Below, piece by piece: positions 4,626 through 47,280 of a stretch of DNA of 64,000 nucleotides. The notes under the pieces were generated by a model. The model was not told where the DNA came from, made no database searches, and saw nothing but the letters and a program-made list of their open reading frames with translations. The DNA is from Nevskiaceae bacterium (GTDB lineage Bacteria > Pseudomonadota > Gammaproteobacteria > Steroidobacterales > Steroidobacteraceae). Made by a program: the position numbers and the translations under genes. Location: positions 3,752 to 67,751 of the forward strand of contig JBBIKV010000007.1 in NCBI GenBank assembly GCA_037445285.1. The letters are read 5' to 3'. Within the stretch, counting starts at the first letter, position 1; the number at the start of each line of letters is the position of its first letter.

Positions 4626-5534
4626 TCAGGCAAGAACCAACGCGGGTCGGACGCACGCCTCGAGCTGGTCGCGCAGCCAGGAGTGCGCCGGATCCTGCTG
4701 ATAACGGGCGTGCCAGATCATGTACATCGACAACTCCGGGCAGGGCACCGGCGGCCGGAAGTGGCCGAGGCCGGTCATGGTGCGTCTCTCGAGCAGTCCG
4801 GGCGCGGTGGCGATCAGCGCGGTGCCGCGGATGAAGGAGGGCAGTGCGCTGAAGCCCGGCACGGTGACCGTGATGCGGCGTTCGAACCCGCCGGCGGCCA
4901 GGTGCTGGTCGAGATCGAGGCTGCGCCGCGGCTCGTACAGCACGGTCGCATGCTCCGCGGCCAGATACTCGGCGCGGTTCCGCGGCGCGTCGCGCACCGA
5001 GGCGTCGAAGAAGCCGCGGTAACGGTCCACGAACAGGCGTTTCTGCATGACGTCCGTTCCATCCGGCGGGCGCGGACTGACGATGAGCTGATGCGCATCG
5101 GCGCGCAGGGTCTCGAGCAGCGGCACCCCGGAGGGAACGATGCGCAGCACCACCCCGGGGGCCTGGGTCCGCAGGCGTTCGGCCAACGCGGGCAGCAGCA
5201 GGTCGCGCTGGAAGTCGTTCGCCGCGATCGTGAAGGTCGTCCGCCACCGCGCGGGATCGAAGCCTGCCGAGCGCGCGAAGCGCTCCAGGTCCCGCAGCAG
5301 GTCCCGTGCCTGCACGCCCAGGGCTTCGGCGCGCGAGGTCGCGACGATGCCGCGGCCGGACTTCACGAACAGCGCATCCCCGGTGATGGCGCGCAGCTTG
5401 TTGAGCAGGTGACTGACCGCCGACTGCGTCACGCCGAGAGTCTGGGCGGCGGCGGTGATGGAACCGCGGTCCAACACCGTCACCAACAGCCGCAGCAGTC
5501 CCGCATCCAGCGCCGACCAATCGATTTTACTCAT
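4626..5534 (-). CDS. LysR-family transcriptional regulator
   Basis: 302 aa. N-terminal wHTH (LRLLVTVLDRGSITAAAQTLGVTQSAVSHLLNKLR) followed by a LysR substrate-binding domain. Divergent from the ligAB-like genes. Confidence 0.9.
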   Translation of the reverse strand: MSKIDWSALDAGLLRLLVTVLDRGSITAAAQTLGVTQSAVSHLLNKLRAITGDALFVKSGRGIVATSRAEALGVQARDLLRDLERFARSAGFDPARWRTTFTIAANDFQRDLLLPALAERLRTQAPGVVLRIVPSGVPLLETLRADAHQLIVSPRPPDGTDVMQKRLFVDRYRGFFDASVRDAPRNRAEYLAAEHATVLYEPRRSLDLDQHLAAGGFERRITVTVPGFSALPSFIRGTALIATAPGLLERRTMTGLGHFRPPVPCPELSMYMIWHARYQQDPAHSWLRDQLEACVRPALVLA

Positions 5535-5544
5535 GTATCAGATG

Positions 5545-5561
5545 ATGAAACATCAGTTCAT
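5545..5561. promoter_or_regulatory. Candidate LysR-type operator (ATGAA-N7-TTCAT inverted repeat)
   Basis: Seen directly: ATGAAacatcagTTCAT in the AT-rich 96-bp divergent region between the LysR start (5534) and the ligA-like start (5631). Confidence 0.3.
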
Positions 5562-5630
5562 TTTTTACAATGCGTCAGGGATAGTGTCGTCGAGCAACGC
5601 ACAGCAAACCGTCAATCATCGGAGACCCAC

Positions 5631-5981
5631 GTGACCCAAGCCGCGCCCAAGATTCCGGGGACGACGCCCTTCGATGGCGACCAGGCCCGCAAAGGCTATC
5701 GTCTGAACAAGATGTGCTACTCGTTCAACGACGCCGCCAATCGCGCCGAATTCCTCGCGAACGAGGACGCCTACATGACCAAGTACGGGCTCAACGACCA
5801 GCAAAAGGCGGCCATCCGCGCCCGCCACGTGCTGAGCCTGATCGCGGCGGGCGGCAACGCCTACTATCTCGCCAAATTCGCCGGCATCTTCGGTCTCGAC
5901 ATGCAGGACATCGGCGCCCAGCAAACCGGCATGACCAAGGCCGAATTCCAGGCCAAGCTGCGCTCGGCCGCGAACCAATAA
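5631..5981 (+). CDS. ligA: Protocatechuate 4,5-dioxygenase alpha-subunit-like protein (LigA family)
   Basis: 116 aa from the GTG at 5631, preceded by GGAGA at 5621-5625. The sequence (GYRLNKMCYSFNDAANRAEFLANEDAYMTKYGLNDQQKAAI) is typical of LigA/PmdA small subunits. It is directly followed by a LigB-like gene. Confidence 0.8.
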   Translation: MTQAAPKIPGTTPFDGDQARKGYRLNKMCYSFNDAANRAEFLANEDAYMTKYGLNDQQKAAIRARHVLSLIAAGGNAYYLAKFAGIFGLDMQDIGAQQTGMTKAEFQAKLRSAANQ

Positions 5982-5991
5982 GGACCGCACC

Positions 5992-6873
5992 ATGGCACAA
6001 ATCATCGGTGGCCTCGCCACGTCGCACATCCCCGCCATCGGCGGCGCCATCCACAAGGGCCTGCAGCAGGACCCGTATTGGAAACCCTTCTTCGACGGCT
6101 TTCCGCCGATCCGCCAATGGCTGGGCCGGGTCAAGCCCGACGTCGTCGTGGTGTTCTACAACGACCATGGTCTGAACTTCTTCCTGGACAAGATGCCCAC
6201 GTTCGCGGTCGGCGCGGCGGAGCAGTACGAGAATGCCGACGAGGGCTGGGGCATCCCGACGCTCGCGCCGTACAAGGGCGACCTCGACCTGTCCTGGCAC
6301 ATCATCAACTCGGTGACGGAAAAGGACTTCGACCTCGTCACCTGCCAGGAGTTGCTCATCGATCACGCCTGCACCCTGCCCCTCAAACTGCTCTGGCCCG
6401 AGAGCGTATGCCCGGTGAGCATCGTGCCGGTGTGCATCAATACCGTGCAGTTTCCGCTGCCCTCCGCCAGGCGCGTCTACGCGTTGGGGAAGGCCGTCGG
6501 CGAGGCCATCCTCAGCTGGAAGAGCGGCAAGAAGGTCGCGGTGCTCGGCACGGGCGGCCTGTCCCATCAGCTGGACGGCGAACGCGCGGGCTTCATCAAC
6601 AAGGACTTCGATCTGCAGTTTCTCGACAGCATGCTGACCAACCCGGAATGGGCCACGCAATTCAGCATCCACGACCTCGTCGAGAAGACCGGCACGCAGG
6701 GAGTCGAGCTGTTGATGTGGCTGGCGATGCGCGCCGCGCTCACCACGAGCAACGCGAGCGTGCGCAAGGTGCACAGCAACTACCACATTCCGATCTCCAA
6801 CACCGCCACCGGCGTGCTCGCGCTCGAAGCCCTGCCGGCGGCGCCCGCGGCCGCCCTCAGTTCGGCGGCCTGA
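5992..6873 (+). CDS. ligB: Class III extradiol dioxygenase beta subunit (LigB family; protocatechuate 4,5-dioxygenase-like)
   Basis: 293 aa. The N-terminus MAQIIGGLATSHIPAIG...VVVVFYNDHGLNFFLDKMPTFAVG matches LigB/PmdB-type catalytic subunits. Confidence 0.85.
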   Translation: MAQIIGGLATSHIPAIGGAIHKGLQQDPYWKPFFDGFPPIRQWLGRVKPDVVVVFYNDHGLNFFLDKMPTFAVGAAEQYENADEGWGIPTLAPYKGDLDLSWHIINSVTEKDFDLVTCQELLIDHACTLPLKLLWPESVCPVSIVPVCINTVQFPLPSARRVYALGKAVGEAILSWKSGKKVAVLGTGGLSHQLDGERAGFINKDFDLQFLDSMLTNPEWATQFSIHDLVEKTGTQGVELLMWLAMRAALTTSNASVRKVHSNYHIPISNTATGVLALEALPAAPAAALSSAA

Positions 6874-6877
6874 CCGC

Positions 6878-7297
6878 TTGAACTCGACCGTTCGCACGGA
6901 ACCCGGCCCGAGTCCCGCGAGGGACCCGAGCCCGTACGACCGGCTCGGCGGCGCACCGGCCCTGCGCCGCATCACCGAGCGATTCTACGACGTCATGAGC
7001 GAGGCGCCGGAGGCCGCCGTGGTGCGCGCCATGCACTCCGGCGACCTCGCGCCGATGCGCCGGAAGCTGTTCGAGTTCATGAGCGGCTGGCTCGGCGGCC
7101 CGAACCTGTATTTCGAGCGCAGCGACCGCAAGTGCATGGGTACCGCGCATGCCCCTTATCGCATCGAGGAAACCGAACGCGACCAGTGGCTGTACTGCAT
7201 GCACCGCGCGCTCGAGGACGAGGGCGTCGAGACCGAACTGCGCGAACGCATCGAATCCGCCCTATTCAGGATGGCGGACATGCTGCGCTCGGCGTAG
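6878..7297 (+). CDS. Truncated (2-on-2) haemoglobin, group II-like
   Basis: 139 aa. A TTG at 6878 is the only start upstream of the conserved YDRLGG opening. ...ITERFYDVM...FMSGWLGGPNLYFE...MGTAHAPYRI... is the typical trHb pattern. The gene begins 4 nt after ligB. Confidence 0.7.
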   Translation: MNSTVRTEPGPSPARDPSPYDRLGGAPALRRITERFYDVMSEAPEAAVVRAMHSGDLAPMRRKLFEFMSGWLGGPNLYFERSDRKCMGTAHAPYRIEETERDQWLYCMHRALEDEGVETELRERIESALFRMADMLRSA

Positions 7298-10022: not shown

Positions 10023-11483
10023 CTACCGGTCCGCGTCCGCCGCGACGGCCGCCGTGAAGCATTTGAAGGTGTTGCGGCCGTCGTATTTCGCCTGGTACAT
10101 CGCGAAATCCGCGCATCTCAACAAGGCATCCGCATCCGCGGCATCGTCCGGATAGATCGCCACCCCGATGCTCGCGGAAATCCGCAATTCGTGCTCCCCC
10201 AGCAGGAACGGGGCATCGAGCGCCACCAGGATCTTGTTCGCGCAAGCCACCGCATCCGTCGCGCGCGCCACCCCGGCGAGCACCACGACGAATTCGTCGC
10301 CGCCCTGGCGGCTCACGGTGTCCGAGTTGCGCACGCAGCTCAGCAGGCGGCGCGCGACGCCCTGCAACAGCTTGTCGCCGACGGCGTGCCCCAGGGAGTC
10401 GTTGATGTCCTTGAAGCGGTCCAGATCGACGAACAGCAGCGCCGCGAGCGTGCCGTTGATGCGCGAGTTGTCGATCGCCTGCGCGAGCCGTTCGGAGAAG
10501 AGCGAGCGGTTCGGCAGGTCGGTCAGTACGTCGTGCTGGGCCAGCCGCGCGAGCCTGGTCGACAGTTCGCGCGCGACGGTGACGTCGTGGGCGACCATGA
10601 CGGCGCCGATGACGCCGCCGTTCCGGTCGTGGATCGGCGAGGCCGACACTTCAACGGCCAGATGCGACCCCTCTCGCCGGACGAGAACGCAGGGACTCGT
10701 CAAGGAAACCGTCCGGTCCTCGATGATGGCCTGCGTCGTCGGACAGGGAATGATCCGCCGATCCGTGGCGTCCACGAGGGGGAACACCTCGTCCAGCGGG
10801 GCGCCGGACGCTTCGGCCTGGGCCCATCCGGTCAATCTTTCCGCGACCACGTTGAGGTAGCTCACCCGGCCCCTGAAACTGGTGCTGATCACGGCGTCGC
10901 CGATGGAATTCAGCGTGACCTGAGCGCGCTCCTTCTCCTCGAACAGGGCGTCCGCGTTCACCAGCAGCGACTCGTTGGTGTTCTGCAGGGCCAGTTCGAC
11001 CGCACGGCGGCGCGACACGTCGCGGCAGACCAGGATCGTGCCCGCGGTGCGCCCCGCCTCGTCCTGCATCGGGACGACCCGGCAATCGATAGCGAGCTGC
11101 GCGCCGCGCCGGTCGACCAATGAGAGATGGGCGGCGCGGCCGGGCCGCTCCTCCGCACGTTCGATCTGCTCGAGTGGACGCTCGAGGCGACGGCCGGTCG
11201 CCGGATCCACCAACAGGAATACCTGCGCCAGGGTCTTGCCGACCGCCTCGCCCGCGGGCCAGCCGGTCATCAATTCCGCGGCCGGATTCAGATACACCAC
11301 GCGTGCGGACCGGTCGACCGTGATGACCGCCTCCGCGATGGCCGCCAGTGCCGCCCCATACAGGCGGTGGAGGGAATCGAAACCGGCATCGGTGTCGCAG
11401 AGTGGATCGTTCGTCATAGTCGGGCGTTGCATCGCCGCCGTCGACCGGCAATGTACTCTGTGAGACGGCGCCCGTCGTGTCAA
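10023..11483 (-). CDS. PAS-PAS-GGDEF diguanylate cyclase
   Basis: About 480 aa; the exact start is uncertain (several Met near the N-terminus). Two PAS-like segments precede a GGDEF domain. The active site RQGGDEF is intact and an RxxD I-site (RNSD) lies 5 residues upstream. Confidence 0.85.
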   Translation of the reverse strand: MTRRAPSHRVHCRSTAAMQRPTMTNDPLCDTDAGFDSLHRLYGAALAAIAEAVITVDRSARVVYLNPAAELMTGWPAGEAVGKTLAQVFLLVDPATGRRLERPLEQIERAEERPGRAAHLSLVDRRGAQLAIDCRVVPMQDEAGRTAGTILVCRDVSRRRAVELALQNTNESLLVNADALFEEKERAQVTLNSIGDAVISTSFRGRVSYLNVVAERLTGWAQAEASGAPLDEVFPLVDATDRRIIPCPTTQAIIEDRTVSLTSPCVLVRREGSHLAVEVSASPIHDRNGGVIGAVMVAHDVTVARELSTRLARLAQHDVLTDLPNRSLFSERLAQAIDNSRINGTLAALLFVDLDRFKDINDSLGHAVGDKLLQGVARRLLSCVRNSDTVSRQGGDEFVVVLAGVARATDAVACANKILVALDAPFLLGEHELRISASIGVAIYPDDAADADALLRCADFAMYQAKYDGRNTFKCFTAAVAADADR

Positions 11484-11558
11484 TGCCGCAGGCGGCGCAA
11501 AGGCATAGGAGGATAACGCACGATGACCGCGCCATCGTCCTACACCGCGGGCACGCGC

Positions 11559-12116
11559 CTACGTCGAATGCGCGGTCTGAGGGGCGGCGGAAAGGGACGG
11601 GGATGTCCCGAAGAGGTGGGTCGCCATCAATCCCACGGCCTCGACCACCTGCCGCTCGTCGTTGCTGCGCACCGCCCGGGCGGCGGCCGCACGAATGCGC
11701 GGCAGAGCCGGATGGGTCGGCTGACCGCCCAGGCTCCTGCTGTAGTCGCGAACCGCCGCGGCCGACAGGTCCGCGGCGGCACCGAGACCCATGGCCGGGG
11801 AAAGCACCCTCGCGGAGGCGACGAGTGCGGCGATGCGCCAGGCGCAGGGTTCGCGGATCAAGGCCGCCAACCCGTCGCTGACGGCGCAGACCAGCGGGCC
11901 GACCGCCGCCACCCGGCCGGGCCGTCCATCGATCGCCCTCTGCAGAAGATACACCGTCGCCGTCGCCAGATCGTCGGTGACGCGCGCATCGCCGGCGGGC
12001 GCGCACGTCTGGCCGCGGGACCGCAGGAACGCCTCCAACGGCGCGTGCCGCAAGCGCGCCTCGAGTGCACCGTGCCATCTTGCCGCGACCTTTGCGTTGG
12101 GTATCAGAACAGCCAC
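11559..12116 (-). CDS. Hypothetical protein (Ala/Arg-rich, no recognisable domain)
   Basis: 185 aa with a GTG start. I read the codons by hand and third positions are overwhelmingly G/C, as in neighbouring real genes. The overlapping alternative ORFs are Arg/Gly/Pro-rich junk. Confidence 0.45.
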   Translation of the reverse strand: MAVLIPNAKVAARWHGALEARLRHAPLEAFLRSRGQTCAPAGDARVTDDLATATVYLLQRAIDGRPGRVAAVGPLVCAVSDGLAALIREPCAWRIAALVASARVLSPAMGLGAAADLSAAAVRDYSRSLGGQPTHPALPRIRAAAARAVRSNDERQVVEAVGLMATHLFGTSPSLSAAPQTAHST

Positions 12117-22901: not shown

Positions 22902-24521
22902 TCAGCGTCCACCGGGGACGCGGGGGATGATGCCGGGGACGACGTACTGCTCGATGATGACGATCGCGACCAGCATCAAGGTCAGAACGACGCTGTGCAC
23001 GAACGTGCGCGCCAGGATGGCGCCCTCCTGTCCCTTGAGATTCGTCACCGACACGCCGGTCGCGATGTTCTGCGGCGAGATCATCTTGGCCAGCACCCCT
23101 CCAGAGGAATTGGTCGCGGCGAACAGCAGCGGGTCGAGGTGCAGTTGCCGGGCGGCGACCACCTGCAGGTTGCCGAACAGCGCATTGCCCGACGTGTCGC
23201 TGCCGGACAGGAACACGGCCATCCAGCCCAGGAAGGGCGAAAACAGAACGAAGGCGCGGCCGGTCGATGCCACCGCGAGGCCCAGGGTGTAGGCGAGACC
23301 CGCGTAGTTCATCACGTAGGCGAGTGCGACGACGAGCATGACCGTGACCACCGCCAGCCAGATCTGCCGCAGGGTCCGGGCGGCACACCGCAGCAATTCG
23401 GCGGGCGGCAGGCCGACGGCGAGCGCGGTCAGGAGGGCGGCGCACAAGATGGCGGTGCCCGTGGCCAGCGGTTGGAACACCCACACCGCCGCATAGGGCT
23501 TGTCGTGATACAGCGTGATCGCCACCACGTTGTCGAGCCCGGGCCAGGAAATGTTCCGCTGGCCGAACGAGGCGACGTTGAACGAGTTCCAGAGGATGAC
23601 GGTGACCGACACGATCAGCCAGGGCAGCCACCCCTGCCACGATCCTCCGCGGCGCAACGCCGCCGCTTCCGGCCGCGGCCCCATCACCTCGAACTCGGCC
23701 ACGACGGCCGGCCGCCACACCTGCAGGAACGACACGGTGGCGAACAGCGACCCGAGCGCCGCGAGCACGTCGGTGAGGGTGTAGTCCAGATAATTCGAGG
23801 TGACGAACTGCGTCAGTCCAAAACTGACGCCGGCCACCGTCAGCACCGGCCACAGCGCGCGCACCGAGCGCCAGCCGCCGTAGAGCGCGATGACGTAGAA
23901 CGGCAGGATCATCGCCATCAGCGGCAGCTGCCGGCCGATCATTGCGGCGAGCGCCGCTGCGGGCAATCCGGTCACGGCGCTCAACACGGTCACCGGCACG
24001 CCGAGCGCGCCGAAGGCCACCGGCGTGGTGTCGAAGATCAATACGAACACCAGCGCATCGAGCGGCGCGAACCCCACCATGATGAGCAGCGAGCCGGTGA
24101 TCGCCACCGGCGCCCCGAATCCGGCGATCCCCTCCAGCAGCGCACCGAAACAGAAACCGATCACGATGAGGATCACGCGGCGGTCGTTCGGCAGGTGCGT
24201 CAGGACCCAGACGCGGAACGCCTCGAATCGCCCGGAGGCGACGGCGATGTGGTACAGCCACAGGGCATTGACGACGATCCACATCACCGGCCAGAGGGCG
24301 AACACCGCCCCGTCGAGCGCGGCGGCGCACGCCGCGCGCACCGGCATCGCCCAGAGGGTGACCGAGACGGTGAATGCCGCCGCCAATCCGGCGAGGGCCG
24401 CCTGCCATGCCGGTCTCTTGAGGATGCCGAGCATCACGAGCAGAACGGCGAGCGGCAACAGCGCCACCAATGCGGAGAGGCCGAGGCTGCCCTGCACCGG
24501 CGTCAATGGTTGATGAAACAT
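22902..24521 (-). CDS. lctP: L-lactate permease family transporter (LctP/LldP)
   Basis: 539 aa, polytopic membrane protein with LctP-like sequence throughout (PVTVLSAVTGLPAAAL; SGSDTSGNALFGNLQ). Confidence 0.85.
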   Translation of the reverse strand: MFHQPLTPVQGSLGLSALVALLPLAVLLVMLGILKRPAWQAALAGLAAAFTVSVTLWAMPVRAACAAALDGAVFALWPVMWIVVNALWLYHIAVASGRFEAFRVWVLTHLPNDRRVILIVIGFCFGALLEGIAGFGAPVAITGSLLIMVGFAPLDALVFVLIFDTTPVAFGALGVPVTVLSAVTGLPAAALAAMIGRQLPLMAMILPFYVIALYGGWRSVRALWPVLTVAGVSFGLTQFVTSNYLDYTLTDVLAALGSLFATVSFLQVWRPAVVAEFEVMGPRPEAAALRRGGSWQGWLPWLIVSVTVILWNSFNVASFGQRNISWPGLDNVVAITLYHDKPYAAVWVFQPLATGTAILCAALLTALAVGLPPAELLRCAARTLRQIWLAVVTVMLVVALAYVMNYAGLAYTLGLAVASTGRAFVLFSPFLGWMAVFLSGSDTSGNALFGNLQVVAARQLHLDPLLFAATNSSGGVLAKMISPQNIATGVSVTNLKGQEGAILARTFVHSVVLTLMLVAIVIIEQYVVPGIIPRVPGGR

Positions 24522-24561
24522 GGCTCCCTTGATGATGCGCGAAGGTCCGGCGCCGCGACGC

Positions 24562-25566
24562 CTACGCCCCCGGCGTAGCGCCGGCAGCCGTCTGCAGATC
24601 CCTTACCATGTAGTCCACCGCGTGATTCCACGCGTTGTCGCTGTCGCCGCGAAAATCGAACGACTTTCGCGCCGTGATCTGCCCGGTCTTCACGTCGTGA
24701 ATCTCGTACGTCAGGGTGAGGATCAGGCCGCTCACGCGGTTCACCCAGGCGACCAGGACGAGATCGGCATTCAATCGCCGGCCGATGTCCAGATCGCAGC
24801 CGTTGCAGTCGTGCAGATAGGCCTGCTGGGACTCGAGCCGGGCGATGAGGTCCGCCGCGGGCCGCGCATCCACGAGCGTGTACAAACCGGTCCTTCCGAG
24901 ATCGTCCCGCAGGCGCGCACTTTCGCTCACGAGCCGCGCCGCATGCTCCGCGGTGAATTCGGGGCCGCCGAGGTCCCCCGTCAACTCGATGTCGAGAACG
25001 ACGAGCGTCGGCGAGACGGGTGACTGCGGTTCGACCACCTGCGTCGGCAGCCCGGCCGCGCTCCACCCCTCGATGCCATCCGCAAACCACGATACGCGGC
25101 GGTAACCATAGCCGATGGCGCGCTTCGCGGCGTTCCAGCTCAGCCAGCACCGCTCATGGCAATACACGACCAGCGGCGTGCCGGCGTCGCCCGCCGTCGC
25201 CCGCCGCAGGCGGTCGCGATAGAAGGCGTCCATCGCGGGAGTCAGCACGCCCTCACCGGTTCCCGGCAGCCATTGCGCGCCGGGCAGCGCCCGATGCGCG
25301 AGGGGCAGCCACGGCGCCCCGGGTGCGAGCCCGGCGGGCTTCAGCGGCCGGCTCGACACGTCGATGATGACCGCTCCGCCCCGGCGGATCAGCGCCTCGA
25401 CGTCCCTGGCGTGCACGACGCGCCCGCCGTGGAGGCTGGCAGGGACCGGCGCCTTCGGATCGCCCTGCCAGATCCCCGGCGGTTCGCTCGCGGCGGTCGC
25501 GCAGCCCCACAGCATCATCCACGGGAGCATCCACGGCAGGCGCCGTGCGCTAACCCGTCGGTACAT
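24562..25566 (-). CDS. Exported rhodanese-like C-x3-CW protein fused to a C-terminal domain of unknown function
   Basis: 334 aa from the ATG at 25566; the ORF is also open from 25590. Leader MYRRVSARRLPWMLPWMMLWGCATAAS. The rhodanese-like half carries VVYCHERCWLSWNAAKRA. From memory this resembles the 'PQQ-dependent catabolism-associated CXXCW motif protein' family. The ~150-aa C-terminal half (LVVLDIELTGDLGGPEF...NGCDLDIG...) is DUF3280-like, also from memory. Confidence 0.6.
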   Translation of the reverse strand: MYRRVSARRLPWMLPWMMLWGCATAASEPPGIWQGDPKAPVPASLHGGRVVHARDVEALIRRGGAVIIDVSSRPLKPAGLAPGAPWLPLAHRALPGAQWLPGTGEGVLTPAMDAFYRDRLRRATAGDAGTPLVVYCHERCWLSWNAAKRAIGYGYRRVSWFADGIEGWSAAGLPTQVVEPQSPVSPTLVVLDIELTGDLGGPEFTAEHAARLVSESARLRDDLGRTGLYTLVDARPAADLIARLESQQAYLHDCNGCDLDIGRRLNADLVLVAWVNRVSGLILTLTYEIHDVKTGQITARKSFDFRGDSDNAWNHAVDYMVRDLQTAAGATPGA

Positions 25567-26365
25567 CGAAGCTCTGTCCGAAGCTGGCATCCTTCGTGTC
25601 GCGCACCAGCACCTTGAGCTGTCCCTTCGCGGGTGGGGTGAAATCGAAGCCGATCACCGGATCCGCGCTCAGCGAAATGTCCGAATCCAGGTGCATCACC
25701 TGCACGCCGTCGTAGCTCACATCGACGTTGCGGATGAACATCGCCGGCGTATACAAGCGCGTCATCTGGTCCATTTGCATGCCGTTGAAATTCGGATGCC
25801 GGATCATCAACTGCGCCTCCAGGGTGCGGCCGGCGACGAAGGGCTGCAGGAGCCGCAGCTTGATGTGGCCGATGTCCTGCAGCGCCTGTTGCGTGTCGGC
25901 GCCCGACGGCGCGGAACAGCCGCCGGCCGCCTTGACGAACCGGGCGGCCGCGAAGAGCTGCCCGTCAGCGGTCTCCGCGACCGCATGGATGTAGGTGTAC
26001 GCGTTGACCCGCACGCGCAGCTTGAGCGAGCGGGCGTCCCCCAGCGGTCCGAAGGTGAAATGCCCGGCGAGCGGCCCCGGATTGTTGTCGATGACCAGAT
26101 ACACGCCCTTGATGGGCTTGTCGCCCTTGATCTTGAGGTTGACCGGCACCAACGCGGCGTCGAGCGCCCGCTCCGGCGCCTCGATCTCGATCCATCCGCG
26201 GCCGTCCTGAACCGGACGGCCCTCGAACAGGGCATGCTGCAATTCCACCCATCGGGCGGCCCTGCCGGCCTCCTCGTCATCCGGCGCCGACGCGGCCTGT
26301 CCCGCGCCCGCCCACAGTCCGATCACCAGCACCGCCGGCGCCCATATTCCGCGCATCATTCCCAT
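25550..26365 (-). CDS. Exported SoxYZ-like fused carrier protein ('quinoprotein dehydrogenase-associated SoxYZ-like carrier' type)
   Basis: 271 aa from the ATG at 26365, overlapping the upstream stop by 10 nt. Signal peptide MGMMRGIWAPAVLVIGLWAGAGQAASA. The SoxY-like half ends in AAGGCSAPSG (single Cys150, codon 25916..25918). It is followed by a SoxZ-like half (LMIRHPNFNGMQMDQ). Confidence 0.7.
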   Translation of the reverse strand: MGMMRGIWAPAVLVIGLWAGAGQAASAPDDEEAGRAARWVELQHALFEGRPVQDGRGWIEIEAPERALDAALVPVNLKIKGDKPIKGVYLVIDNNPGPLAGHFTFGPLGDARSLKLRVRVNAYTYIHAVAETADGQLFAAARFVKAAGGCSAPSGADTQQALQDIGHIKLRLLQPFVAGRTLEAQLMIRHPNFNGMQMDQMTRLYTPAMFIRNVDVSYDGVQVMHLDSDISLSADPVIGFDFTPPAKGQLKVLVRDTKDASFGQSFDVPTG

Positions 26366-27288
26366 TCGACCTCCTTGAACGCCTGTGTGACGTTGTGGCC
26401 GTGATAATCGTCGAACAACTTCCACCGGGGCCGTTCGGACCGGGCGACCGTGGCGACCGCGGCGCCGATGTCCATGCCGCGCTTCACCGCGGCGCGGGTC
26501 TCCCGCAGGAGCACGTCGAGATAACGCTCGAGGTCCGCCGCCCCCGCGGGCCAGTTTACGCTCACCGGGCCGTGCCCGGGTACTGCGCGCGCCGCCCCGA
26601 TGGACTTCAATCCCGCAAGCGCCTTCTGCCATCCCGTGAGGCGCCCGTCCAGCGAGGGAATCCGTTCGACGAACAGCAGATCGGCCGGCAGCAGCGTGCC
26701 GCTGCGCGGATCGAAGGCGCTGAGATCGCAATCCGAATGCGCGACGTCGTGCGCCTCGAGCAGCACCACTCGGTCGCCGAGATCGATTCGATCCCGATCG
26801 GCGACCAGCCGGGTCGGCATGACGAGCGGACCGGGCTTGCCCGCACCGAGAATCCCCTCCAATCTCGTCCGATAGTACTCCCCGCGCTGCGCCAGGGCGT
26901 TCGGCAGTCGTGCGTGGCCGATGAATTGCGGCGCATCGCGCACGAAGGCGCCGGCGCCGAACACGTGGTCCGGATGCACGTGCGACATCAGCACGTGGCT
27001 GATCGGCAACCGCGTCACTTCGGTGATGCGCCGGCGCAACCGCTCGCCGTCGTCCAGGCTGCCGCCGGTGTCGAGCACTGCGACCGAGTCGCGCCCGACG
27101 ATGAAGCCGATGTTCGCGATCGCGCCGCCGTTCGCGCGGCTGGCGTCTTCATCGATGCCGCGGCGGATATGGATGCCCGGCGCGACTTCCCGGGTGTCGA
27201 GCGCCGCGTGCCGAGCGCGGCCGCGCGCCGGCAGCGCCGCCGCGCACAGCGCAGCGGCCGCCGCCGCCAATGCGCGGCGCCGCGACAC
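26356..27288 (-). CDS. Exported metallo-beta-lactamase-fold zinc hydrolase ('quinoprotein relay system zinc metallohydrolase'-like)
   Basis: 310 aa from the GTG at 27288. Tat-like leader VSRRRALAAAAAALCAAALPARG. MBL motif SHVHPDHVFG. The 638-aa ORF in the track runs on upstream, out of frame through the GntR gene. Confidence 0.7.
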   Translation of the reverse strand: MSRRRALAAAAAALCAAALPARGRARHAALDTREVAPGIHIRRGIDEDASRANGGAIANIGFIVGRDSVAVLDTGGSLDDGERLRRRITEVTRLPISHVLMSHVHPDHVFGAGAFVRDAPQFIGHARLPNALAQRGEYYRTRLEGILGAGKPGPLVMPTRLVADRDRIDLGDRVVLLEAHDVAHSDCDLSAFDPRSGTLLPADLLFVERIPSLDGRLTGWQKALAGLKSIGAARAVPGHGPVSVNWPAGAADLERYLDVLLRETRAAVKRGMDIGAAVATVARSERPRWKLFDDYHGHNVTQAFKEVEWE

Positions 27289-27323
27289 GGACGGCGGAGG
27301 CGCCGCGGGCGGCGGCCGCGCGT

Positions 27324-28079
27324 TCAGATCGCGAGCCTGCGGATGTAGTCGTGCCGCTTCTTGGTCGATCTGCCGCCGACCTCGAGCGCCTCGGGCTCGG
27401 TGGCGGCCAGCAGATCCTCGATCACCCGCGCGAGATGATCGCGCATCGCATTGCGCGCGGCTTTCGGGTCGTGTTTGCGCAGCGCCACCAGGATGCGGCG
27501 ATGTTCGCTCACACGCGGCTGCACGCCGACGTGCCGCGCACGCTCGAGCATGAAGACGCAGAGCGGCGACTTGTGCCGCATGTCGAGCAGGTCCTCGATG
27601 ACGGTGGCGATCGCCGTGTTGCGGGTCGCCCGCGCGATCGCGATGTGGAACCGCCGGTCGGCGGTCCAGTCCTGTTGCCTGCGCGCGTTTTCGTCCACCA
27701 TCTCGGCGACGATCCGCTCGAGTTCGTCCAGGGTTTCGTCGGTGATCGTCGTCGCCGCCAGCGCCGCCGCTTCGCCCTCGAACAGGCGCCGGGCTTCCGT
27801 CAGCTCGAACGCACCGATGTCCAGGTCGCCGCCGCCCGCATGGGCGGGCGGATGATCGGTCACGTAGATGCCGGACCCATGGCGCGTCTCGGCCAGACCG
27901 CGAATCTCGAGGGCGATCATCGCCTCGCGAATGGTGGGACGGCTGACCTTGAACGCGGCGGCCAGGTCGCGCTCCGACGGCAGACGGTCGCCCGGCTTGT
28001 GCTTGCCCGACGCAATGGACTCCATGATCGTGCTCGCGACCTGCTGGTAGAGCTTGCGGGTATCGGACGTCACGGTCAT
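27324..28079 (-). CDS. GntR-family regulator, FadR subfamily (FCD domain; LldR/PdhR-like)
   Basis: 251 aa from the ATG at 28079. The wHTH PGDRLPSERDLAAAFKVSRPTIREAMIALEIRGL is followed by an all-helical FCD-type C-terminal domain. Confidence 0.85.
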   Translation of the reverse strand: MTVTSDTRKLYQQVASTIMESIASGKHKPGDRLPSERDLAAAFKVSRPTIREAMIALEIRGLAETRHGSGIYVTDHPPAHAGGGDLDIGAFELTEARRLFEGEAAALAATTITDETLDELERIVAEMVDENARRQQDWTADRRFHIAIARATRNTAIATVIEDLLDMRHKSPLCVFMLERARHVGVQPRVSEHRRILVALRKHDPKAARNAMRDHLARVIEDLLAATEPEALEVGGRSTKKRHDYIRRLAI

Positions 28080-28108
28080 CCGCCGAATCTTGACCGCTTC
28101 GCCATCGG

Positions 28109-29209
28109 ATGGCAACGTGCGGCATGCACCCACGCACCGCAGCGCGACTCGACACCAGCCTTGAATTGCTGCTCGAACGCACGCCCGCGAACGGGACCCC
28201 CCGGGTGCTCGCCACGCTCGTGGCCGCGGCGGGCTCCACGTACCGCAAACCCGGCGCGCGAATGCTCATCATGGCCGACGGCAGCTACTGCGGCTTGTTG
28301 AGCGGGGGGTGTCTCGAGGCGGACCTCGGCCTGCACGCCCGCGGCGTGCTCGAGAGCGGGGTGCCGCGGACCGTTGAATACGACATGCGGGGCCCGGACG
28401 ACATCCTGTTCGGCATCGGCGCGGGCTGCGAGGGGGCGATGCGGGTGTTGCTCGAACCCGCAGGTCCCGGGACGGTGGCTGCCGCGGCCCTGGCCGACGC
28501 CGGCCGGACGACCCGCCAAGGACGCGCCACGGCGCTCGTGGCGGTGCATGAATCGAGCGACCTGGAACTCGGTACCTACCCTGGGGCGGCCTTGCCGCCG
28601 GGGGAACTGGCGACGGCGGCGCAGGGTGCGTTGACGGAACGCAGGTCGCAGGCATTCGACCGCGAATTCGCGGGGCGGCGCACCCGCGCATACCTGCACT
28701 ACCTGCCCCCGCCGCCCCATCTGCTGATCTGCGGCGCCGGACCGGACGCCCAGCCGGTGGCCGCGACGGCGCTGGCTCTCGGCTGGCGCGTGTCGATCGT
28801 CGACCACCGACCCGCCTACGCCGTCGCGGCGCGCTTTCCCGGGGCATGCGTGGTGCGGGCCGACGCGCGGCAGCTGCGCACCGCGATCGAGTTGGACGGC
28901 TGCCACGCCGCGGTCGTCATGAGCCATCACCTGCCCTCGGACGTGGCCTATCTCAGCGAATTGTCCGGGGCGGGGCTGCCAGAATATGTCGGACTGCTCG
29001 GTCCCGCCGCCCGCCGGCAACGCATCGCGGACGAGTTGGGGGCTGTGGCGGCCGGACTGCGGTCGCGGCTCCACAGCCCGGTGGGTATGGACATCGGCGC
29101 GGTCACACCGGAGGGGATCGCAGTGGCGATCGTCTGCCAGATTCATGCCCACCTGGCACGGCGCGAAGCGGTCCCGGCCCGCGGCTTGCCGGCATCGTGC
29201 ACGCCGTGA
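28109..29209 (+). CDS. XdhC/CoxI-family molybdo-enzyme maturation factor
   Basis: 366 aa. N-terminal XdhC_CoxI segment (LATLVAAAGSTYRKPGARMLIMADGSYCGLLSGGCLE) and a Rossmann-like XdhC_C segment (HLLICGAGPDAQPVA). Confidence 0.8.
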   Translation: MATCGMHPRTAARLDTSLELLLERTPANGTPRVLATLVAAAGSTYRKPGARMLIMADGSYCGLLSGGCLEADLGLHARGVLESGVPRTVEYDMRGPDDILFGIGAGCEGAMRVLLEPAGPGTVAAAALADAGRTTRQGRATALVAVHESSDLELGTYPGAALPPGELATAAQGALTERRSQAFDREFAGRRTRAYLHYLPPPPHLLICGAGPDAQPVAATALALGWRVSIVDHRPAYAVAARFPGACVVRADARQLRTAIELDGCHAAVVMSHHLPSDVAYLSELSGAGLPEYVGLLGPAARRQRIADELGAVAAGLRSRLHSPVGMDIGAVTPEGIAVAIVCQIHAHLARREAVPARGLPASCTP

Positions 29210-38416: not shown

Positions 38417-39211
38417 TCAACCCAGGGTCACGCTCACCGGACAATGGTCGCTGCCCGTGACTTCCGGATGAATCGCCGCGGCCTTGACGGCGTCCCGCAG
38501 CCCCGAGGACACCAGGAAGTAATCGATCCTCCAACCGATGTTGCGGGCCCGCGAGTTGGCGAAATGGCTCCACCAGGAATAGTGGCCGTTGCCCTGGGTG
38601 AACAGCCGGAAGGTGTCGATGAAGCCGGCATCGAGAAGATGCTGGAATCCGCTGCGCTCCTCGTCCGTGAAGCCCTTCTTGCCGCGGTTGGACTTCGGGT
38701 TCGCCAGATCCATCTCCGTATGCGCGACGTTGAGATCACCGCACAGGATGACGGGCTTTTTCGCCTGAAGCTGCACGCAATAGGCCAGAAATGCGGGATC
38801 CCAATGCTTGAAACGCAACGCCAGCCGGCTCAGATCCTCCTTGGCGTTGGGCGTGTAGACCGTCACGACGTAATATTTCGCGTACTCCGCCGTGATCACC
38901 CGGCCCTCCTCCGCGCTGTCGCGCTGCAATTCGTCCGCAAAACTGAAGCGCGCGGCGAAATCCCCCGGAAATCCGTTGATGACCGCGACGGGTTCCTGCT
39001 TCGAGAATATCGCCGTGCCCGAATAGCCCTTCTTGACCGCAGAATTCCAATATTCGTGGTAGTCGGGCAGATCGATCTCGACCTGCCCGCGCTCGGCCTT
39101 GGTCTCCTGCAGGCACAGGATGTCCGGCTGATGCGCTTCGAGAAACGACAGGAACAGCCCCTTGCGGTGGACGGCACGAATGCCGTTCACGTTCCACGAA
39201 TAGATTTTCAT
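38417..39211 (-). CDS. xthA: Exodeoxyribonuclease III
   Basis: 264 aa. MKIYSWNVNGIRA...ILCLQETK...SDHCPV hallmarks of the ExoIII/APE family. Confidence 0.9.
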   Translation of the reverse strand: MKIYSWNVNGIRAVHRKGLFLSFLEAHQPDILCLQETKAERGQVEIDLPDYHEYWNSAVKKGYSGTAIFSKQEPVAVINGFPGDFAARFSFADELQRDSAEEGRVITAEYAKYYVVTVYTPNAKEDLSRLALRFKHWDPAFLAYCVQLQAKKPVILCGDLNVAHTEMDLANPKSNRGKKGFTDEERSGFQHLLDAGFIDTFRLFTQGNGHYSWWSHFANSRARNIGWRIDYFLVSSGLRDAVKAAAIHPEVTGSDHCPVSVTLG

Positions 39212-39293
39212 GTCGGCGAAGATACCCGGTTGCAGGTCTCCAAGGAATGCGCCGATGGCAATTCACGCCGCGGGCGGCCGTTGCGCGCCTCGC

Positions 39294-39587
39294 TCACGCC
39301 CGGATTCCATGAAACGGCGCGCTGCCGAACAGGTGCTTCGCACTGCCCTGGATGCGGTCGGCATCGATGGTCGCGGTGAACTTGAAGCTCAGTCGCATGG
39401 GCTTCGTGATTTTCGCCGACCATTCGAGCCGGTTGCCCTCGATCCTGCCGTTGCCGATGACGGCGAAATGCTCGCCGTCCGACAGCGACCCCGAGAGCTT
39501 CTCCCCGTCGACGACCAGATCCAGCACGCCCGTCTTGTCCCCCATCGGCGTCTTGATCGTGACATTCCATTTACCCTGCGCAGACAT
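39294..39587 (-). CDS. Conserved-looking small beta-rich protein of unknown function
   Basis: 97 aa. Internally two-fold pattern (GKWNVTIKTPMGDKTGVLDL...; LEWSAKITKPMRLSFKFTATI...). Starts 3 nt after the LysR gene stop. Confidence 0.6.
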   Translation of the reverse strand: MSAQGKWNVTIKTPMGDKTGVLDLVVDGEKLSGSLSDGEHFAVIGNGRIEGNRLEWSAKITKPMRLSFKFTATIDADRIQGSAKHLFGSAPFHGIRA

Positions 39588-39590
39588 GAC

Positions 39591-40544
39591 TCACCTCCTT
39601 GGTGCACGCGCCGGCTCGACCGGACGCGCCTTGTCGGACAACAGCGCGCGCAGCCTCCCGTCCGCGAAATCCACGAACGCCGCCACCGCGGCGGGGATTT
39701 GTTCGCGGCTGGGAAGCACGATATTGAAATCGGAGCCATGCCGGCGATGGTCGGGCAGGACGTGCACGAGGCGGCCGGCGCACAGATCGGCATGCGTGAG
39801 CATCGAGGGCAGCAGCGCCACACCCAGTCCCGCGAGGCAGCTCTGCAGCAGGATGCGCGAACTGTTGGCGTTGAACCGCCCCGCGACCTTCACCGACTCC
39901 TCCCCCCGCGGCCCGGTCAGCGTCCAGACCGCCCCGCGCTGCCGGCTGGAGATCGTCAAACAATCGTGAGCCTCGAGATCCTGCAGGCACTGCGGCGCAG
40001 CTCGCGCGGCCAAATAGCCGGGACTCGCCACCAGATCGAAATGCACCGGCGTGATGTGGCGGAATGCGGTGGCCGCATCCGGGGCAGCCCCGCCGCGAAA
40101 GGCGACGTCGATGCCCTCCTCGATCAAGTCGGCGCGCGCGTCGCTCAGGACGAAATCGAGCTGCACCCGCGGATGCCGGACCAAAAACTCGGTCACCCAC
40201 TGCATACGGAACAGGTCGAGAAAATCCTCGGGCGCCGCAACGCGCACGCACCCACTGGGATCGCGGCTGCCGTCGACCAGGTTGCGGCCGGCTTCCAGCA
40301 CGCCGTCGACCGCATCGGCGCAGCGATCGAAAAATGCCTGCCCTGGGGCGGTCAGCGTGAGTTTGCGGGTCGATCGCTGCATCAGGCGGGTACCCAGCGA
40401 CGCCTCCAGCTTGCGGATGCGGCGGCTCAAGGTATTGGGCGGCACGTTCAGGCGGCGCGCCGCCTCGACGAAACTGCGTGCCCTCACCACCTGCACGAAC
40501 ATGCGTACCTCATTGAGATCCAACACCTGACTTCTCTCATTCAT
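39591..40544 (-). CDS. LysR-family transcriptional regulator
   Basis: 317 aa. The wHTH LNEVRMFVQVVRARSFVEAARRLNVPPNTLSRRIRKLE plus a LysR effector domain. Divergent from wrbA. Confidence 0.9.
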   Translation of the reverse strand: MNERSQVLDLNEVRMFVQVVRARSFVEAARRLNVPPNTLSRRIRKLEASLGTRLMQRSTRKLTLTAPGQAFFDRCADAVDGVLEAGRNLVDGSRDPSGCVRVAAPEDFLDLFRMQWVTEFLVRHPRVQLDFVLSDARADLIEEGIDVAFRGGAAPDAATAFRHITPVHFDLVASPGYLAARAAPQCLQDLEAHDCLTISSRQRGAVWTLTGPRGEESVKVAGRFNANSSRILLQSCLAGLGVALLPSMLTHADLCAGRLVHVLPDHRRHGSDFNIVLPSREQIPAAVAAFVDFADGRLRALLSDKARPVEPARAPRR

Positions 40545-40637
40545 GGCATGGTTTGATCCGATTATGCCATCTAGTCATAGAATCATCCGCCGCCTATGCT
40601 GAGCATCGATTCGACCCACTGACAATCGGAGGCTCCT

Positions 40638-45106: not shown

Positions 45107-47280
45107 GCGGCGTCCGGCGGCCGGGTGTTCGGCTGGCGCTCGTGGCTCAGCACCACGAACGAACGCGGTGCCATGTCGACGATCCGGTTGCGCTTGACGA
45201 TCTCCACCTCGAGCGGCAGGTCGGGGCGGGCGGTGTCGAAGGCGATCTTCCAGCCCGAATGGTACAGCTGGTAGGAGATGCGGAACGCGACCGCCTCGTG
45301 ATGGGCGTTCAACAGCAAAAGAAAGTCCTTGTCACGGACGCCGCGGCCGTCGCGGCTGCGGATTTCCGGCGCCATGCCGTTCAGGAACATGCCGAGCGTC
45401 CGCATCCACCCGCCGTCCTCCCAATCGCTCGCCTCCATGCGCTTGCCGTCCGCCCGATACCAGACGATGTTCTTGTCGGGATGCACGGCATCGGGATCGT
45501 CGTGGTAGAAGGTGTAGCGATGCAGATTCGGGTGCTGTTGGCGGTACCGGATGACGCGCTGCGCGAAGCCGAGAAACTCCCGCGCCCTCGCATCCAGGTC
45601 CCAGGGATACCAGGACAGTTCGGAATCCTGGGCATAGCCGTTGTTGTTGCCGTTCTGGGAGCGGCTGAGCTCGTCGCCGCCGGAAATCATGGGCGTTCCT
45701 TGCGCCAGCATCAGCGCGCACCATAGATTGCGCTTCTGGCGCTCCCGCAGTTCGATGATCTTCGGATCGTCGGTGGGGCCCTCGACGCCGCAGTTCCAGG
45801 TGTTGTTGTCGTCCGCCCCGTCGCGGTTCGATTCACCGTTGGCCTCGTTGTGCTTCTGTTCGTAGCTGACGAGATCCTGCAGCGTGAAGCCATCGTGAGC
45901 GGTGACGAAATTGATGCTGGCCGAGGGCGGCCTGCGGGCGGCCTCGTACAGATCCGCACTGCCCGCCAGCCGCGTCGCGATCTCCGAGTGCAGACCCATG
46001 TCGCCCTTCCAGTACTTGCGCACGGCATCCCGGTACCGCCCGTTCCATTCCATCCATCCGGGCGGGAAATTGCCCACCTGGTACCCGCCGTCGCCCAGGT
46101 CCCAGGGCTCGGCGATCAGCTTCACCGCCGCCAGCGTCGGGTCCTGGTAGATCGTGTCGAAGAACGCGCCCTGCCGGTCGAAGTCCTTCTGTTCCCGGGC
46201 CAGCGCGGAGGCAAGGTCGAAGCGGAAGCCGTCGACGTGCATCTCCGTGACCCAATACCGCAGGCTGTCCATCAACAGCTGCAGCGACTGCGGATGCATC
46301 ATGTTCAACGTGTTGCCGCAGCCGGTGAAGTCCATGTAGTGGCGTGGATCGCCGGGAACCACGCGGTAGTAGGCCAAATTGTCGATCCCGCGCAAGCTCA
46401 AGGTCGGTCCGTCCTGGTTGCCCTCGGCGGTGTGGTTGTAGACCACGTCCAGGATGACCTCGATGTCCGCGGCATGCAGGTCCTTGACCATCTGCTTGAA
46501 TTCGCGGACGACGTCGCCGGGCGCAACGTGCCGGCCCGCATACCGCGGTTCCGGGGCGAAGAATCCCAGCGTGTTGTATCCCCAGTAATTGCGCAGCCCC
46601 AACTCGGCGAGATGCCGGTCATCCAGGAAATATTGCACCGGCAGCAGCTCGATGGCGGTGACGCCGAGCTCCCGCAGATGGCGTATCACCGGAGCCGACG
46701 CGATCCCCGCGTAGGTCCCGCGCAGCTCTTCTGGGACGTCGGGATGGCGCATCGTCAGTCCGCGGACGTGCGCCTCGTAGATCAGGGTCTCCTGCGCGGG
46801 GTGGACGGGGCGCACCTCACCCGACCAATCGAAGGCGGAATCGATCACCGCACCGAGCGGTGCGAACGGCGCGCTGTCGCGCTCGTCGAAGGCCAGATCG
46901 CCGTCGGGTTGGCCCACACGATACCCGAACAGTTCGTCGGCCCATTCGAGGCCCCGGCCGATCGCCCGGGCGTAGGGGTCGAGCAGCAGCTTGTTCGGGT
47001 TGAAGCGCAGCCCCCGCTGCGGCTCGTAGGGCCCGTGCACCCGGTATCCGTACAGCCGGCCGGGCATAACGTCCGGCAAATAGACGTGCCAGATGCCGTT
47101 GGTGCGCTCCCGGATGCGCACGCGCTCCTCGTTCAGGCCCTGCCCGTCGAACAGGCACAGCTCGACGCACTCCGCGCTCTCCGCGAACAGGGAAAAATTC
47201 ACGCCCCGGCCGTCCCAGGTGGCGCCGCGCGGGAAGGGGGAACCGGCGGCCGGCGGCGGATCTAGAGCGTCCATTTCCAT
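45103..47280 (-). CDS. glgX: Glycogen debranching enzyme GlgX
   Basis: 725 aa. N-terminus [22 protein letters not shown]13 catalytic blocks ([13 protein letters not shown]; GFRFDLAS; EPWD). 4-nt convergent overlap with aceK. Confidence 0.9.

Follow-up and report, generated by a model that had tools for sequence, protein, structure and literature searches.

Among the accessory genes of pyrroloquinoline quinone (PQQ)-dependent alcohol and methanol dehydrogenases are three "quinoprotein relay" families that many methylotrophs and pseudomonads carry in their ped, xox and mxa clusters, for example PP_2666, PP_2677 and PP_2678 in Pseudomonas putida KT2440 and META1p1703-1705 in M. extorquens. Hypotheses offered for them in a 2026 review of the ped cluster (PMC12997753) are the disulfide or cofactor maintenance of lanthanide-dependent alcohol dehydrogenases and the protection of PQQ from sulfur nucleophiles. 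The same three families are found in the 64,000-nt stretch of DNA analyzed here (the window) from Nevskiaceae bacterium GCA_037445285.1 (contig JBBIKV010000007.1, positions 3,752-67,751, forward), in which a metallo-beta-lactamase (MBL) hydrolase, a fused SoxY-SoxZ carrier and a rhodanese-like protein fused to a DUF3280 domain form a trio of genes between a GntR regulator and an LctP-family permease (table 1). The trio shares the Cys motifs, the metal site and the periplasmic targeting with the P. putida and M. extorquens genes. However, its genes are contiguous and overlapping, whereas the canonical ones are scattered in the ped/xox cluster; the 64 kb contain neither a PQQ dehydrogenase nor a cytochrome c, a XoxJ-type binding protein or a pqq gene; there is no type 1 MBL; the rhodanese has DUF3280 fused to it; and the carrier and the MBL fall in a separate clade in their trees. 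We consider it fairly likely (probability about 0.6) that the trio is an intact, exported cysteine-relay operon of the quinoprotein relay families, which belongs to a clade of its own away from PQQ dehydrogenase genes. The protein families are already known and correctly named by NCBI models; what is new here is the quinoprotein-detached clade, the rhodanese::DUF3280 fusion, the family-wide CxxC and predicted fold of DUF3280, and a pattern of independent losses.

Table 1. Coordinates of the trio, its neighbors and related features (positions in the window, except where another locus is named)
Feature	Position	Strand	Basis or remark
GntR regulator, FadR subfamily (GntR helix-turn-helix + FCD)	27324..28079	minus	read from sequence; Pfam
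MBL hydrolase, "quinoprotein relay system zinc metallohydrolase 2"	26356..27288	minus	GTG start; TIGR04559
SoxY+SoxZ fused carrier, single Cys	25550..26365	minus	ATG at 26365; TIGR04557
Cys150 codon of carrier (TGT)	25916..25918	minus	within AAGGCSAPSG; predicted adduct-carrying cysteine
Rhodanese::DUF3280 fusion gene, 334 amino acids (aa)	24562..25566	minus	ATG at 25566; TIGR03865 + PF11684
Rhodanese-like domain, residues ~23-180	25027..25500	minus	TIGR03865, 169.7 bits (cut-off 128.05)
C136-HER-C140-W141 (YCHERCW)	25144..25161	minus	read from sequence
DUF3280 domain, residues 187-323	24598..25008	minus	PF11684, 1e-35; 123.5 bits (gathering threshold 30.1)
C254-NG-C257 (CxxC of DUF3280)	24796..24807	minus	
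LctP-family permease	22902..24521	minus	TIGR00795
Type 1 MBL example, locus L010	10754-11707		degenerate metal motif
Type 1 MBL example, locus L018	~10876-11706		degenerate metal motif

Direct reading of the minus strand bears out the five same-strand genes that an earlier, sequence-only reading had described, together with their coordinates and two overlaps. The MBL gene starts 35 nt after the GntR stop, its own stop overlaps the carrier ATG by 10 nt (26356-26365), the carrier stop overlaps the ATG of the fusion gene by 17 nt (25550-25566), and the fusion gene is followed by LctP after 40 nt. The five genes had been taken as one block; they are indeed co-directional, but the run does not end with them, as SelO comes 45 nt after LctP, next comes a DAO-type oxidoreductase, and with the genes that follow the run reaches about 11. 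No promoter or terminator above chance expectation was detected in simple scans of the locus, and the lack of such a terminator, together with the 10-nt and 17-nt overlaps, supports the operon reading, with the genes of the trio tightly coupled in translation. The three open reading frames (ORFs) of the trio are intact, show coding-type G+C content at third codon positions (GC3), and retain all conserved motifs and the overlapping starts. All three central proteins had been proposed to carry export signals, of the twin-arginine translocation (Tat) type in the MBL, and their N-termini agree with this: that of the MBL is export-like with a twin arginine (MSRRRALAAAAAALCAAALPARG) also found in relatives, and those of the carrier (MGMMRGIWAPAVLVIGLWAGAGQAAS) and the fusion protein (MYRRVSARRLPWMLPWMMLWGCATAAS) are export-like as well. 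An Rfam scan of the window returned 0 matches, a megablast search of plasmids with the 5-kb region yielded nothing beyond a chance match of 33 nt, and an exact-sequence look-up found no sequence identical to the LctP of the window in public assemblies.

The families named in the sequence-only reading (TIGR04559, TIGR04557, TIGR03865 and DUF3280) were all correct, their curated cut-offs being passed in a hidden Markov model (HMM) search. The MBL scores 355.2 bits against the type 2 model TIGR04559 (cut-off 280) and fails the type 1 model TIGR04558 (164.5 bits, cut-off 300), and the window carries this type 2 MBL only, with no type 1 partner. Its binuclear metal site is complete (HxHxDH, His, Asp, His), and the motifs HVHPDH, AHSD, ADLLF and PGHG are present in all 18 type 2 sequences compared. 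The nearest solved structure is 8D2Z (2.6e-20), followed by the glyoxalase II YcbL, 2XF4 (2.9e-5). The residues adjoining the third metal His read AH..H[ST]DCD in the clade to which the window belongs, hereafter the orphan clade, vs. W..HTDND in the canonical loci. The MBLs of the orphan clade share a Cys two residues past this His (AH[ST]DCDLS, residues ~185-197), at which position the PQQ-linked enzymes have N, H or T; to judge from the alignment, this may be a clade-specific change of the active site. In the type 1 MBL ("metallohydrolase 1") of canonical PQQ loci, HQAPEF or HGLPEF replaces HxHxDH and the third His is missing, and these proteins are, on their residues, probably non-catalytic.

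The carrier passes TIGR04557 (256.6 bits, cut-off 140) and consists of a SoxY domain (residues 45-150) and a SoxZ domain (residues 178-265) as defined by Pfam. Its Cys, proposed earlier to lie in AAGGCSAPSG at the position of the SoxY GGCGG arm, is found there on reading, and in the alignment Cys150 matches exactly the C-terminal GGCGG cysteine of Paracoccus SoxY (2OX5/2OXG). All 20 carrier homologs compared show the surrounding FVKA[AS]GGC[ST]AP without exception. Because SoxY and SoxZ are fused, Cys150 lies in an internal inter-domain loop rather than on a free C-terminal arm. The locus thus has in common with the Sox thiosulfate-oxidizing system the SoxY and SoxZ folds, a Cys at the adduct-carrying position and a SoxH-like periplasmic MBL. 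It differs from that system in the SoxY-SoxZ fusion with its internal Cys, in failing the cut-offs of the true SoxY model (TIGR04488, 57.8 bits, cut-off 125) and the true SoxZ model (TIGR04490, 53.2 bits, cut-off 76), and in the absence of SoxXA, SoxB and SoxCD domains from the window in Pfam scans.

In the third protein the Cys pair YCHERCW had been placed on a rhodanese-like scaffold, which the sequence itself, the TIGR03865 score and a Foldseek match of this half to rhodaneses all confirm; the extra C-terminal domain of ~150 aa can now be named as DUF3280. The "CXXCW motif" of TIGR03865 is actually C-x3-C-W, which 94 of 101 family representatives have, as do all 16 of the locus sequences compared; the loop consensus among the latter is [FY]CxxxCWxSWNA. 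A CxxC is likewise present in 45 of 45 DUF3280 representatives, and also in the DUF3280 protein of Roseomonas. Each of these components therefore bears conserved cysteines: one in the carrier, two in the rhodanese and two in DUF3280. In the AlphaFold model of the DUF3280 half (pLDDT, the model's confidence score, 87.9), the first Cys lies in a loop before a helix and the second is residue 1 of that helix. Although the CxxC had prompted the idea of a thioredoxin-like domain, the fold search pointed elsewhere, as Foldseek matched the half to the LpoB C-domain, the TolB N-domain, PelC and GNA1162 (E ~4e-6, template modeling (TM) score to target <=0.65). DUF3280 is thus predicted to resemble the periplasmic docking or scaffold domains of the LpoB/TolB-N kind, with no detectable sequence similarity to them. 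We know of no invariant CxxC before a helix, as in DUF3280, in the LpoB, TolB-N, PelC or GNA1162 domains.

To see how widespread the fusion is, a library of 1.84 billion proteins was searched, and the best 150 representatives of 2174 matches at E<=1e-3 were inspected. Only one of these 150 (P0105) has both halves, the remaining ones being rhodanese-only or DUF3280-only, so that the fusion falls within one 50%-identity cluster among them and is therefore lineage-specific. In the PQQ cluster of Roseomonas, DUF3280 and the rhodanese are encoded separately, the former adjoining SoxYZ and the latter beside the gene of the XoxJ-type binding protein; the fusion thus unites two proteins of one canonical cluster. 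As a Rosetta stone, it points to DUF3280 with its universal CxxC as a fourth player and strengthens the idea of a cysteine-to-cysteine relay. In six other proteins of 438-470 aa (P0252, P0267, P0271, P0279, P0285 and P0332), the CxxxCW rhodanese makes up the C-terminal third of a ~450-aa protein, and the N-terminal part may correspond to the XoxJ-type binding protein, whose gene stands before that of the rhodanese in canonical loci. There is also a second group of DUF3280 paralogs, stand-alone and 64-70% identical to the domain in the window (L023, L058, L060 and L063-L104). They sit in unrelated contexts, e.g., after a LysR regulator in L023, and in L078 a PQQ-dehydrogenase-like gene, 32% identical to XoxF, is found ~8 kb off.

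The window had been said to contain no PQQ dehydrogenase, cytochrome c or pqq gene, and this holds by every search applied: Pfam scans of its ~60 called ORFs across the 64 kb detected neither PQQ domains nor pqq genes nor cytochrome c, tblastn of the window with the PQQ alcohol dehydrogenase (PQQ-ADH) of Azoarcus KH32C, its cytochrome c and its XoxJ-type binding protein gave no match, and a pattern search found no PqqA-like peptide. Against the possibility that orthologous loci always carry a PQQ dehydrogenase next to the trio, none of the 15 related loci having at least 5 kb on both sides has a PQQ-ADH match. In L001 and L003, GntR and MBL are separated by 3 kb of inserted DNA, a candidate for a PQQ dehydrogenase gene that turned out to encode a PAS-GGDEF-EAL protein and a methyltransferase. 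The closest relatives of the locus are found in Steroidobacteraceae and other gammaproteobacterial metagenome-assembled genomes (MAGs), with carrier identities of 73-76%, and many soil-metagenome contigs are also related.

The canonical arrangement is evident in plasmid loci of Azoarcus KH32C, Caballeronia, Roseomonas, Phyllobacterium and Salipiger, where the type 2 MBL and SoxYZ genes lie a few kb from a methanol/ethanol-family PQQ dehydrogenase, a cytochrome c and a XoxJ-type binding protein; three of these five loci (Roseomonas, Phyllobacterium and Salipiger) also have the CxxxCW rhodanese. Plasmids of Neorhizobium petrolearium and Sinorhizobium mexicanum, on the other hand, bear orphan loci, with contiguous MBL, SoxYZ and rhodanese genes and no PQQ-ADH within 10 kb. 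Canonical SoxYZ-like carriers and XoxF genes occur on the large replicons of many Sinorhizobium strains other than the trio-bearing S. mexicanum. Quick neighbor-joining (NJ) trees were built for the carrier and for the MBL. Each of them separates the PQQ-linked loci from a single clade that unites every contiguous orphan trio: those of the window and its relatives, of the L005 and L006 MAGs and of the two plasmids from Rhizobiaceae. Because the orphan trios cluster in both trees and PQQ-ADH is absent from all 15 long loci, the detachment from quinoprotein genes at the neighborhood level is a property of the clade and not an accident of the window. The carrier and rhodanese motifs and the full HxHxDH/H/D/H site of the MBL are the same in the orphan and canonical clades. 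A compact operon far from quinoprotein genes offers a simpler genetic setting in which to probe relay function.

The neighbors of the trio were compared across the lineage. The order of the block is XdhC, a divergent GntR, GGDEF-EAL, methyltransferase, MBL, SoxYZ, rhodanese::DUF3280, LctP, a set of ABC, PRC, MFS and other genes, and SelO, of which GGDEF-EAL, the methyltransferase and the set before SelO vary between relatives; the window has the most compact version. GntR directly upstream of MBL is so far seen in the window only, and most relatives have a methyltransferase, with or without GGDEF-EAL, in between. L002 at first appeared to share the direct arrangement, until tblastn revealed an intervening methyltransferase. 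The regulator has the Pfam domains GntR (5.5e-22) and FCD (1.6e-23), and its orthologs, 80-88% identical, occupy the same position in most relatives. Its earlier description as LldR-like proved not to be specific: it scores 98 bits against LldR (NF007741, cut-off 311), and the models of ExuR (153.7), UxuR and NanR score higher, all far below their cut-offs, so that it is best called a generic FadR-type GntR. The permease was rightly placed in the LctP family, as it passes the broad model TIGR00795 (444 bits, cut-off 341), but it fails the equivalogs LldP (409.9 bits, cut-off 918) and GlcA (366.8 bits, cut-off 1121), and for this reason its substrate is not assignable. The block resembles lldPRD lactate operons in having a FadR-type GntR and an LctP-family permease in a co-directional array; it differs from them in lacking a lactate dehydrogenase gene, in a regulator and a permease below the LldR and LldP cut-offs, and in the unrelated exported proteins that lie between.

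Whether the linkage of the trio with GntR and LctP recurs in orthologous loci had been put forward as a check. The fusion gene is carried by 36 recovered loci, 28 of them with at least 400 nt downstream, and in 23 of the 28 LctP is indeed the next gene, the alignments often touching; an over-extended LctP start is the probable cause of the 4-nt overlap with the fusion gene called in L015, as the alignment begins 21 nt later. The linkage is not general, since the losses are independent and the orphan trios recovered outside the lineage lack it. Three loci (L001, L030 and L047) keep the trio and miss only LctP, with an ABC gene next instead. Conversely, at least five loci (L022, L052, L055, L059 and L061) have lost MBL, SoxYZ and the rhodanese domain and retain DUF3280-LctP; four of these five still have GntR or the methyltransferase upstream. 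In trio-less loci the reading frames of DUF3280 and LctP overlap. In-frame deletion chimeras join to DUF3280 the N-terminus of MBL (P0124), residues 31-74 of SoxYZ (P0169) or the N-terminus of the methyltransferase (P0128). These chimeras represent losses rather than insertions, and they arose several times over. Both the trio and LctP are lost in L024, and GntR is lacking in L013. In L014, SoxYZ and the fusion gene are intact and LctP is absent, with a Rieske oxygenase upstream and a creatininase downstream; its MBL (5237-5910) lacks about residues 104-187 through an internal deletion, and gene calling renders it as two small ORFs. The contig of P0117 starts just upstream of the fusion gene and has the creatininase and no LctP. 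The orphan trios outside the lineage (Neorhizobium, S. mexicanum and L005/L006) have neither LctP nor GntR as neighbor. From the separate loss patterns and the chimeras it follows that in this lineage LctP is the operon partner of the DUF3280-containing gene, that the trio is not needed for this pairing, and that neither of the two genes is dependent on the other. The link to LctP is real as an operon arrangement in the lineage and is not obligatory, and the independent losses caution against taking adjacency to a lactate permease as a coupling of the whole trio.

If the trio is such a relay operon, Cys150 of the carrier would hold a covalently bound, sulfur-linked group, as at the adduct position of SoxY. 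The two-cysteine loop of the rhodanese and the CxxC of DUF3280 would load, transfer or reduce the carried group, and the zinc hydrolase would cleave it off the carrier and regenerate the thiol. GntR and LctP would belong to a lineage-specific operon and synteny block, in which the partner of LctP, both in transcription and in evolution, would be the DUF3280-containing gene and not the trio. Several points weigh against this reading. We infer the relay chemistry throughout from homology with SoxY (covalent sulfur carriage) and with rhodanese (persulfide transfer), and the P. putida genes PP_2666, PP_2677 and PP_2678 have no demonstrated function according to the ped-cluster review (PMC12997753). 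The trees are quick NJ trees of 20 sequences, midpoint-rooted and without support values, and most related loci come from one lineage, so that the synteny may partly reflect common descent. The more distant P0117 contig, with a fusion gene 56% identical to that of the window, has a PQQ dehydrogenase 8.4 kb away. The recurrent loss of the trio in relatives could mean that it is marginal in the lineage. Finally, because the motifs are identical across the two clades, the function is likely unchanged and could still depend on a quinoprotein.

This last point leads to the possibility, a substantial one if somewhat short of even odds, that the trio is an ordinary accessory set which serves in trans a XoxF/ExaF-type PQQ alcohol dehydrogenase encoded elsewhere, only its location having changed. 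The TIGR families are defined by their association with PQQ dehydrogenases, which is seen in the five canonical plasmid loci, and in P. putida about ten genes already separate the rhodanese gene PP_2666 from PP_2677 and PP_2678. The unchanged catalytic motifs, the PQQ dehydrogenase on the P0117 contig and the PQQ-dehydrogenase-like gene near the paralogous DUF3280 of L078 are in line with it. However, all 15 long lineage loci lack a PQQ-ADH within 5-10 kb and the window has none in its 64 kb, both NJ trees set the orphan clade apart, the MBL of this clade has residues of its own next to the active site, and the orphan trios of Neorhizobium and S. mexicanum are on plasmids. The description of a detached relay operon and service to a quinoprotein in trans are not mutually exclusive in their structural part. 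A reduced Sox-type system, unrelated to quinoproteins, that oxidizes or detoxifies periplasmic inorganic sulfur (thiosulfate, sulfide or polysulfide) is unlikely: SoxY, SoxZ, the SoxH-like MBL and the rhodanese do have counterparts in sox clusters and the Cys is at the SoxY position, yet the carrier stays below the true SoxY (58 vs. 125) and SoxZ (53 vs. 76) cut-offs, its cysteine is not on a free C-terminal arm, and the window has no SoxXA, SoxB, SoxCD or cytochrome c.

The sequence-only reading had suggested a possible tie of the trio to hydroxy-acid uptake. In a strong form of this idea, the MBL might, for instance, act like glyoxalase II on a carrier-bound thioester and so free a 2-hydroxy acid, which LctP would import and GntR would sense. 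Such a coupling would account for the frequent position of LctP directly downstream with no terminator detected, and for glyoxalase II as the second-best solved relative of the MBL. It is not obligate, because the trio and LctP are lost independently and DUF3280 stays with LctP, even alone in the deletion chimeras; moreover, orphan trios of other taxa lack both neighbors, no glyoxalase I-like gene was found, GntR is not specifically LldR-like, and LctP is below the LldP and GlcA cut-offs, so we regard this coupling as quite unlikely. A bolder version of it has the orphan clade as a quinoprotein-independent system in which an acyl or hemithioacetal group would be held on the carrier Cys, the MBL would free a 2-hydroxy acid, and DUF3280 would dock to LctP for its import. 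We give this very little credence; if true, it would be a periplasmic, protein-borne analog of the glyoxalase pathway, and canonical loci would dispose of the aldehydes of PQQ dehydrogenases likewise. It is also very unlikely that the trio is a relic being lost in the lineage, with little or no present function and a position due to historical accident. At least three distinct in-frame deletion junctions remove it in relatives, several loci are trio-less and the L014 MBL has its internal deletion, but the ORFs of the window are intact in frame, GC3, motifs and overlapping starts, and 36 of the recovered loci carry the fusion gene.

Upstream of gntR (window 28080-28125), an element TTGCCA-N18-AAGATT is conserved in nine loci (the window, L001-L004, L011, L015, L022 and L024) and ends ~7-9 nt before the ATG. 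It is possibly a promoter yielding a nearly leaderless gntR mRNA, or the operator of GntR itself.

Elsewhere in the window, Pfam gave no match at E<=1e-4 for two long ORFs (39210-40556, 448 aa, and 54840-56378, 512 aa). The gene of a phosphoketolase (XFP) is divided over two ORFs at 47262-49630 on the minus strand, with XFP_N positions 7-258 in the ORF 48401-49630 and XFP_N positions 275-363, XFP and XFP_C in the ORF 47262-48791. As these two ORFs overlap, a frameshift is indicated, due either to a pseudogene or to a sequencing error. Acetate kinase is encoded directly upstream (49634-50830). A TPR + sulfotransferase protein of ~670 aa is encoded at 58954-60972 on the minus strand, and a similar architecture is found in L023 (12407-14422), near the paralogous DUF3280 gene. 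Genes for LigA and LigB (extradiol ring-cleavage dioxygenase), followed by a truncated-globin gene (5631-7297) and with a divergent LysR gene at 4626-5534, look like an ordinary aromatic-catabolism module unrelated to the trio.

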